Below are positions 4,020 to 5,215 of a DNA stretch of 10,294 nucleotides, in pieces. Within the stretch, counting starts at the first letter, position 1. The number at the start of each line of letters is the position of its first letter. Source of the stretch: a virus; the UHGV virus genome UHGV-1838671; one strand, written 5' to 3'. Under the pieces are notes generated by a model. That model had not been told where the DNA came from, did not search any database, and saw only the letters and a program-made list of their open reading frames with translations. Position numbers and translations under genes: made by a program.

Positions 4020-4919
4020 TTACTTCATTCTGAAGACGCGTTGTGTCGTTGTTGTTTTGAATTTTTCGAATAACTCAGGGTGTACTGACTGGAATAGCTT
4101 CTGGTCGAATCTGTTGCTGATCTGAGATTTCCATGTGCAGAGCGGCTTTCCGTCCAGGGTCAGGACTGAATGCTCTTGCATGTACATCTTCAGCTTCTCT
4201 TCTGATATAGCTATTTCTTCTTCCAGTGATTTTCTGCGTGACTTCATGTCTCGTAGATCGTTGAATAGTGCGAGTGCCTTTCCGTCAGCCTCGATACTTG
4301 TCCCGGCATCTTTCTCAAACATCAGCGATACATCGCTTACGCTGGTAGCTTCCGGCGGGTTAAGATTTTTCACTCGGTCCCAGAAAGCGATTTCTTTTTC
4401 TAAGATCGCCTGGATAGTTTCTTCATCACGCTCAACCCGATAGATTCGGAAGTCGTCGCCACCGATAAGCACACCGAAAACGCATACCTGTTTGTTTGTA
4501 ACCATCAACCCATGCATGGCCTGGGCCGTGTAATGCACAGGAATTGCATCTGTCTGGATTTCTCCCCATTCTTTGGCTTTGAACGGGCTAACTGTTTTGA
4601 TCTCAATGTTCTCTCCTGACGCTGCTTCTGCATCGATCTCAGCTGCAATAAAATCGTAATCACGGTGGATATAGCGGTTTCCGCGATGAACGATTTCCAT
4701 CCCTGTTTCCTCAGAAAGCAGGTCTATTACGTATGGCTCCATACGCTGGCCACGCGTGAAAACTTTCTGCTTGCTTGGGTCTACTGGTTTGACACGTGGC
4801 TGGACCTTATCCAGATAAACCTCAAGCGGGGTGCGCCATGGGCTAATTCCAAGAATCCCTGCAACATCGCTTCCTCCGATGTATTTTCTTCTATCCATGA
4901 TTCCAGCGTTCCGCATCAT
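4020..4919 (-). CDS. YqaJ-type (lambda Exo-like, PD-(D/E)xK) recombination exonuclease
   Basis: 299-aa ORF. N-terminal GGSDVAGILGISPWRTPLEVY is the YqaJ viral-recombinase signature. ATG at 4919 overlaps the upstream TGA (ATGA) and is preceded by GAGGG. Sits immediately upstream of recT as the classic exo/annealase pair. Confidence 0.8.
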   Translation of the reverse strand: MMRNAGIMDRRKYIGGSDVAGILGISPWRTPLEVYLDKVQPRVKPVDPSKQKVFTRGQRMEPYVIDLLSEETGMEIVHRGNRYIHRDYDFIAAEIDAEAASGENIEIKTVSPFKAKEWGEIQTDAIPVHYTAQAMHGLMVTNKQVCVFGVLIGGDDFRIYRVERDEETIQAILEKEIAFWDRVKNLNPPEATSVSDVSLMFEKDAGTSIEADGKALALFNDLRDMKSRRKSLEEEIAISEEKLKMYMQEHSVLTLDGKPLCTWKSQISNRFDQKLFQSVHPELFEKFKTTTTQRVFRMK

Positions 4920-5215
4920 GCCGCGTCCCTCTGCCCATCAATCCGATCCGCCAGATCCCAGCGGGCGATAATTGCCATTGCCTCGCGCCGGTAGGCATCC
5001 ATTAGTTCTTCGAACTCAGGGCTGTCTTTAGCGGCCTCCAGTACTTCCTGGCGAACGCCTTTGCCTGTTACAACGTCGAAAGTTGAGGCCAGTTGATGAA
5101 GCCGGATACTCTCAATCAGTTCAACTTGTCGGTCATATAGCTGTTCTGACAGGCAGTAGTCCTTGTCGAATGCCAGCATGATTTTTTGAAGATTTTTCTG
5201 CTGATTAACGTTCAT
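4916..5215 (-). CDS. Hypothetical protein (99 aa) in the lambda Gam position, immediately upstream of the exonuclease
   Basis: ORF track gives 4916-5230; the internal ATG at 5215 (MNVNQQKNLQ...) has a GGGAGGG Shine-Dalgarno about 7 nt upstream and is preferred. Stop overlaps the exonuclease start. No recognisable motif. Confidence 0.5.
   Translation of the reverse strand: MNVNQQKNLQKIMLAFDKDYCLSEQLYDRQVELIESIRLHQLASTFDVVTGKGVRQEVLEAAKDSPEFEELMDAYRREAMAIIARWDLADRIDGQRDAA

Follow-up and report, generated by a model that had tools for sequence, protein, structure and literature searches.

The locus analysed here raises a simple question: what is a 99-amino-acid protein doing at the head of a phage recombination module, where phage lambda would have its host-nuclease inhibitor Gam, and is it related to Gam at all? 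The answer proposed below, to which we assign a probability of roughly 0.65, is that the gene belongs, as a strongly diverged member, to the lambda Gam lineage and that its product would act as an inhibitor of RecBCD. The window, that is, the whole stretch of 10,294 nucleotides under analysis, corresponds to the early-left operon of a prophage of the epsilon15/phiV10 type (Uetakevirus). Its gene order agrees with the annotated phiV10 and epsilon15 records, the DNA around the target gene shares 95–98% identity with E. coli phages of the phiV10 type and 79% with Salmonella phage epsilon15, and the target gene itself is 100% identical between the window and the chromosome of E. coli strain 85.0412. 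The features of the window are the following:

193–1443, plus strand: P4-type integrase
1638–2300, minus strand: MT-A70 adenine methyltransferase
2281–2580, minus strand: PerC-family (PerC-like) activator
2690–2938, minus strand: AlpA-like excisionase
2988–4010, minus strand: RecT single-strand annealing protein (PF03837, 4.5e-57; NF007351, 4.9e-128)
4020–4919, minus strand: YqaJ / lambda-exonuclease-family 5'-3' exonuclease, 299 aa (PF09588, 1.3e-23; TIGR03033, 1.5e-25)
4916–5215, minus strand: candidate Gam-like gene, 99 aa, product acidic and predicted all-helical; phiV10 p38, epsilon15 gp36, PHROG 856
5222–5228, minus strand: Shine-Dalgarno sequence GGGAGGG of the candidate Gam-like gene (sequence reading)
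5218–5370, minus strand: 50-aa Trp-rich ORF, first gene of the operon; PHROG 898, epsilon15 gp37, phiV10 p39
5404–5432, minus strand: sigma-70-like promoter, TTGACA-17-AATCAT, candidate early-left promoter (consensus scan only)
5484–5503, minus strand: intrinsic terminator (8-bp GC-rich stem and T-run) directly after the repressor gene, also annotated in phiV10
5524–6108, minus strand: two-HTH repressor (PF01381; annotation of phiV10 p40 and epsilon15 gp38)

In epsilon15, the gap equivalent to window positions 5404–5503 carries three annotated repressor-binding sites. The 50-aa ORF is conserved across relatives and ends 2 nt ahead of the ATG of the Gam-like gene; it has no Pfam match, and no similarity to lambda Kil was seen in a comparison made by eye only.

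The target ORF (product MNVNQQKN...RDAA) starts at an ATG at position 5215, with the GGGAGGG sequence (5228 to 5222, minus strand) 6 nt upstream, within the 3'-terminal part of the 50-aa ORF that precedes it. A second possible ATG, at 5230, overlaps this Shine-Dalgarno sequence, and the MN start is common to all 54 aligned homologues; for these two reasons 5215 was taken as the start. At the other end, the TGA stop (4918–4916) overlaps the ATG of the exonuclease (4919–4917) as ATGA, and in distant relatives the identical 4-nt overlap joins the Gam-like gene to the gene downstream of it. The coordinates, the length of 99 aa and the ATGA coupling to the exonuclease given in a preliminary description of this DNA are thus borne out by the ORF calls and by direct reading of the sequence. 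The same description had placed lambda gam immediately upstream of exo, which is mistaken, as the order in the lambda locus (L002) is gam-bet-exo, with gam directly upstream of bet; its broader point about the Gam position stands, since here too a small gene leads the exonuclease/annealase pair in an early-left operon.

The target ORF is a real, conserved gene. Its product matches PHROG 856, a group without a named function, from end to end (E = 5e-55). A word-indexed search returned 51 relatives at 73% identity or above from Escherichia, Salmonella, Shigella, Citrobacter and Kluyvera, and an exhaustive profile search together with a second profile search brought the family to about 110 proteins (31–95% identity, most of them 96–102 aa), which are found also in Klebsiella, Enterobacter and Cronobacter. 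Of 5426 complete E. coli genomes, 543, about one in ten, carry the gene, and all the records listed give it as a "hypothetical protein"; the same name recurs in every named member of the family, except for two evidently mis-assigned JGI labels on fragments. Compared with phiV10, the gene shows nine synonymous and four non-synonymous codon differences, a comparison restricted to phiV10, as an indel makes a naive comparison with epsilon15 invalid. None of the roughly 110 family members has a Pfam domain, the window protein has no match in the Pfam and NCBIfam family libraries, and phmmer of the window protein against PDB sequences returned only noise. No Gam assignment for epsilon15, phiV10 or Uetakevirus turned up in literature searches, and no paper or database record was found that names the family Gam-like; the RefSeq re-annotation of epsilon15 cites HHpred for neighbouring genes and leaves gp36 "hypothetical".

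Profile methods do detect remote homology to Gam, and the signal is moderate rather than overwhelming. Two family alignments were used, one of 20 sequences including distant members and one of 54 sequences. When the profile of the former was searched against 177,635 distinct PDB sequences, the best single-stretch match was lambda Gam (5mbv_A, 2uuz_A; E = 0.08), with profile positions 30–86 aligned to GamS 32–90. Designer PPR (pentatricopeptide) proteins, nominally the top matches of that search, were set aside as spurious, their scores being sums of ~3-bit repeat matches with no significant stretch. In hhalign, the family aligned over 55 columns with an alignment of 95 Gam sequences (at least 70% identical, Neff 1.8) with a probability of 81%, P = 1.2e-5 and a score of 33.5; with the 54-sequence alignment the probability was 71% and P = 3.8e-5. 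The score of 33.5 was reached by none of 300 column shuffles (mean 11.6, sd 2.4, maximum 24.5) and by none of 300 block-of-7 shuffles (mean 16.4, maximum 31.8), and the reversed profile scored 20.6. The best-scoring family member, P0056, matches the Pfam Gam profile PF06064 with E = 0.0042 and 17.7 bits, below the 25-bit gathering cutoff, and the match is collinear (residues 31–94 against profile positions 33–96 of 98); the window protein itself gave no match to PF06064 at E ≤ 10 and so misses the 25-bit threshold for membership of Pfam Gam.

The residues common to the family and the Gam consensus include G53/G56, A62/A65, E67-F68-x-E70/E71-F72-x-E74 and A84/A88, and several homologues have a proline at the place of the helix-breaking "GLPQH" of Gam. 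The N-terminal third can be aligned to Gam only at low stringency, with F16 and Y20 weakly placed opposite Gam W15 and Y19. Identity to Gam is about 18–24%, and the two are similarly acidic (family mean pI 4.75 and net charge –6.4; Gam pI 4.86 and net charge –9.7).

A structure prediction, which the preliminary description had suggested as a way of looking for DNA-mimic or helical-dimer features, gave an all-helical model of the target protein that superposes on GamS (2UUZ-type monomer) at 18% identity, so that the predicted monomer has the GamS fold. This result is a monomer prediction and depends on the deeper, 54-sequence alignment. A first AF2 model, built on a shallow alignment of 32 sequences at 73% identity or above, reached a pLDDT of 66 and was discarded in favour of the 54-sequence model; Foldseek of this first model against the PDB found no match. 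A Foldseek search of BFVD returned two good structural matches (TM 0.72–0.77), both without names and therefore uninformative. In the N-terminal region the model has helices at residues 3–13 and 20–36 with a conserved non-helical segment, 14–19, between them; this region is strongly conserved in the family, with K11 and I12 kept in at least 90% of the members and L9 and F16 as majority residues. The PDB profile match, the hhalign probabilities of 71–81%, the PF06064 match and the fold all contradict the view, held in the preliminary description, that the protein is not homologous to Gam; on this evidence it is very probably a homologue of Gam, and a very distant one.

Whether such a protein could act on RecBCD as Gam does can be judged in part from the acidic residues of Gam that form ion pairs with RecBCD (Table 1 of Wilkinson et al., 2022, PMC9836394). 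The mapping covers the six Gam contacts that lie in the reliably aligned region, which does not include six N-terminal contacts.

Gam D74, partner RecC K1066: family E32, 100% acidic
Gam E111, partner RecB K288: family E67, 100% acidic
Gam E114, partner RecB R297: family E70, 96% acidic
Gam D107, partner RecB K268: one-residue gap; next to it, position 64 is 85% acidic and aligns to Gam D108
Gam E118, partners RecB R255, K256 and K828: family position 74 (A/S), 7% acidic
Gam E125, partners RecB R255 and R824: family position 81 (G/A), 0% acidic

Half of the six mappable contacts are therefore kept acidic (E32, E67, E70), that of D107 falls in a gap, and two (E118 and E125) are lost to A, S or G. 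In the complex of RecBCD with DNA, RecB K288 and R297 are also bound to phosphates of the DNA, and the EFxE motif, the best conserved in both families, is thus one that in Gam mimics DNA phosphates.

By analogy with Gam, the following mechanism can be proposed. The protein would dimerise like Gam, and the acidic surface and N-terminal helices of the dimer would occupy the DNA-binding site of the host RecBCD, that is, the duplex-DNA site on the RecB arm, while one N-terminal helix would block the RecB 3'-ssDNA channel as in 5MBV. With RecBCD blocked, linear phage DNA would be safe from degradation, as would the ends that are processed by the phage exonuclease and RecT, and these ends could be handed to that pair, and translational coupling through ATGA would ensure that the Gam-like protein is made together with the recombinase genes. 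Gam, which also renders cells hypersensitive to ciprofloxacin (PMC5218532), uses a long N-terminal helix to plug the RecB ssDNA channel (5MBV; PMC5218532), and the break predicted at residues 14–19 suggests that the binding mode of the family may differ. Taken together with the two lost RecB-contacting glutamates and the low-stringency alignment of the N-terminal third, the break indicates that either the binding geometry or the target could depart from those of Gam. It is conceivable, if doubtful, that the family docks on RecBCD differently from Gam, perhaps evading host systems that detect canonical Gam or on which it has an effect, or that it inhibits another DNA-end-processing enzyme or defence system.

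The same features bear on a rival explanation, in which a DNA mimic with the Gam fold has been retargeted to some other host enzyme that binds DNA ends, or to a defence system, in place of RecBCD or with a changed specificity, SbcCD and Kiwa KwaB being examples. An effect of lambda Gam on Kiwa KwaB is reportedly described in a preprint. The loss of two RecB-contacting glutamates, an N-terminal segment that is unlike the continuous plug helix of Gam yet strongly conserved within the family, and an identity to Gam of only 18% would all agree with retargeting. However, the best-conserved motif in common with Gam, EFxE, is the pair that contacts RecB K288 and R297, the hosts, Enterobacteriaceae throughout, possess RecBCD, and placement with a recombination module is the classic context of a RecBCD inhibitor; a retargeted protein is accordingly considered unlikely.

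The genomic context of the family across relatives points in the same direction as the reading of the protein as a RecBCD inhibitor. At all loci examined (the window, phiV10, epsilon15 and six others) the Gam-like gene immediately precedes a recombination module, no matter which exonuclease the latter contains: YqaJ and RecT in the window and epsilon15, a RecE-RecT fusion in phiV10, and DUF3799/exonuclease VIII and RecT in Salmonella, Cronobacter and metagenomic prophages. The family is thus placed, as Gam is, in early-left operons with the general recombination genes of the phage, and no PF06064 gene was seen in the operons examined. In one lambdoid contig (L008), a family member that is 41% identical is preceded, in this order, by S24-type cI, N, other genes, Lambda_Kil and a 333-aa ORF, and is followed by DUF3799 and RecT; it occupies essentially the kil-gam slot of lambda.

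A mosaic breakpoint in the window, at 4913–4916, coincides exactly with the ATGA junction. To its right, the Gam-like gene, the 50-aa ORF and the repressor are 95–97% identical to phiV10-type phages, in which a different exonuclease, RecE or RecE-RecT, lies downstream of the Gam-like gene; to its left, the nearest named phage for the YqaJ exonuclease and RecT is epsilon15, at 79% only. A breakpoint at this position, with the exonuclease swapped, indicates that the Gam-like gene travels independently of any one exonuclease, which speaks against the two proteins being dedicated physical partners and fits a host-directed function. It also counts against the idea that the protein is a small helical accessory factor of the recombination module, for instance one that serves the exonuclease or RecT as adaptor or modulator, and no nuclease inhibitor. 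Translational coupling to the exonuclease gene and the presence of a recombination module at every locus examined are what such a factor would lead one to expect, but the gene is kept while the exonuclease is exchanged among three unrelated or distant types, with the breakpoint exactly at the ATGA, and the predicted Gam fold is a specific match; an accessory role is therefore regarded as very improbable. Weakest is the version of the preliminary description, a novel anti-nuclease or anti-defence protein that merely sits in the Gam position and is non-homologous to Gam: it would account for the want of Pfam, NCBIfam or pairwise PDB sequence matches and for database names that are all "hypothetical protein", yet it is hardly credible in the face of four independent remote-homology signals (PDB profile, hhalign with its shuffles, PF06064 and fold) that converge on Gam, so that of this earlier proposal the nuclease-inhibitor part is retained here, as the probable function, and "non-homologous" is given up.

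As a diverged Gam, the target would be comparable with lambda Gam (GamS 98 aa; PF06064; PDB 2UUZ, 2UV1, 5MBV) in predicted fold, in size (99 aa), in acidity and in operon slot. It differs in that the family falls below the Pfam threshold, the Gam contacts E118 and E125 have been lost, a break in the N-terminal helix is predicted at residues 14–19 and no longer, GamL-type isoform is evident; moreover, it is paired with RecT and YqaJ, RecE or DUF3799 exonucleases instead of Bet and Exo, and, in contrast to the lambda order gam-bet-exo, its gene is directly upstream of the exonuclease.

Among other phages, the gene for Abc2 of P22 lies downstream of erf. Like the target, Abc2 is small and its gene accompanies a phage recombination module, and it acts on RecBCD, but unlike what is proposed here it binds to RecC and does not block RecBCD but modifies it (PMC9836394). 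No similarity of the target to Abc2 was detected in any search made. [quoted passage not shown] Both T7 gp5.9 and P22 Abc2 are functional analogues only.

With this reading, PHROG 856, which includes epsilon15 gp36, phiV10 p38 and the genes in 543 of 5426 E. coli genomes, gains a testable function, and epsilon15-like phages and some lambdoid phages with RecT-type modules would possess all three parts of a Red-like set, the inhibitor, the exonuclease and the annealase, which is of relevance to recombineering systems built from RecET-type modules. A natural and highly diverged Gam could also help to map the features of Gam that RecBCD binding requires, and to test the response of defences that guard RecBCD, such as retron Ec48, whose toxicity is described in PMC9836394. 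A diverged member of the Gam lineage would not greatly surprise a specialist; its practical value lies in annotation, in recombineering design and as a probe of Gam features.

A few observations were made on neighbouring genes. In many relatives, including the lambdoid contig, an ORF of about 310–337 aa stands between the 50-aa ORF and the Gam-like gene (L003, 3001–3993; L008, 3992–4993; L010, 3980–4993; equivalents in L007, L009 and L011); it matches PHROG 1376 in both copies scanned, no Pfam match is on record for any copy, and it is absent from the window and phiV10. In Salmonella and Cronobacter prophages an ORF of 68–69 aa separates the Gam-like gene from the DUF3799 exonuclease (L003–L007, 4300–4509), with 4-nt overlaps on both sides, and its Salmonella copies have weak MarR/HTH_24-like matches. 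Further downstream in the leftward gene block of the window, the reading frames of the PerC-like gene (2281–2580) and the MT-A70 gene (1638–2300) overlap by about 20 nt. On the plus strand, the ORF at 6860–7675, which is syntenic with the DnaT-like replication gene p43 of phiV10, encodes short tandem peptide repeats (GNEPENGNEPENGN; PKNGMLNDPKNGMLNDPKNG) at residues ~100–150 of its product.
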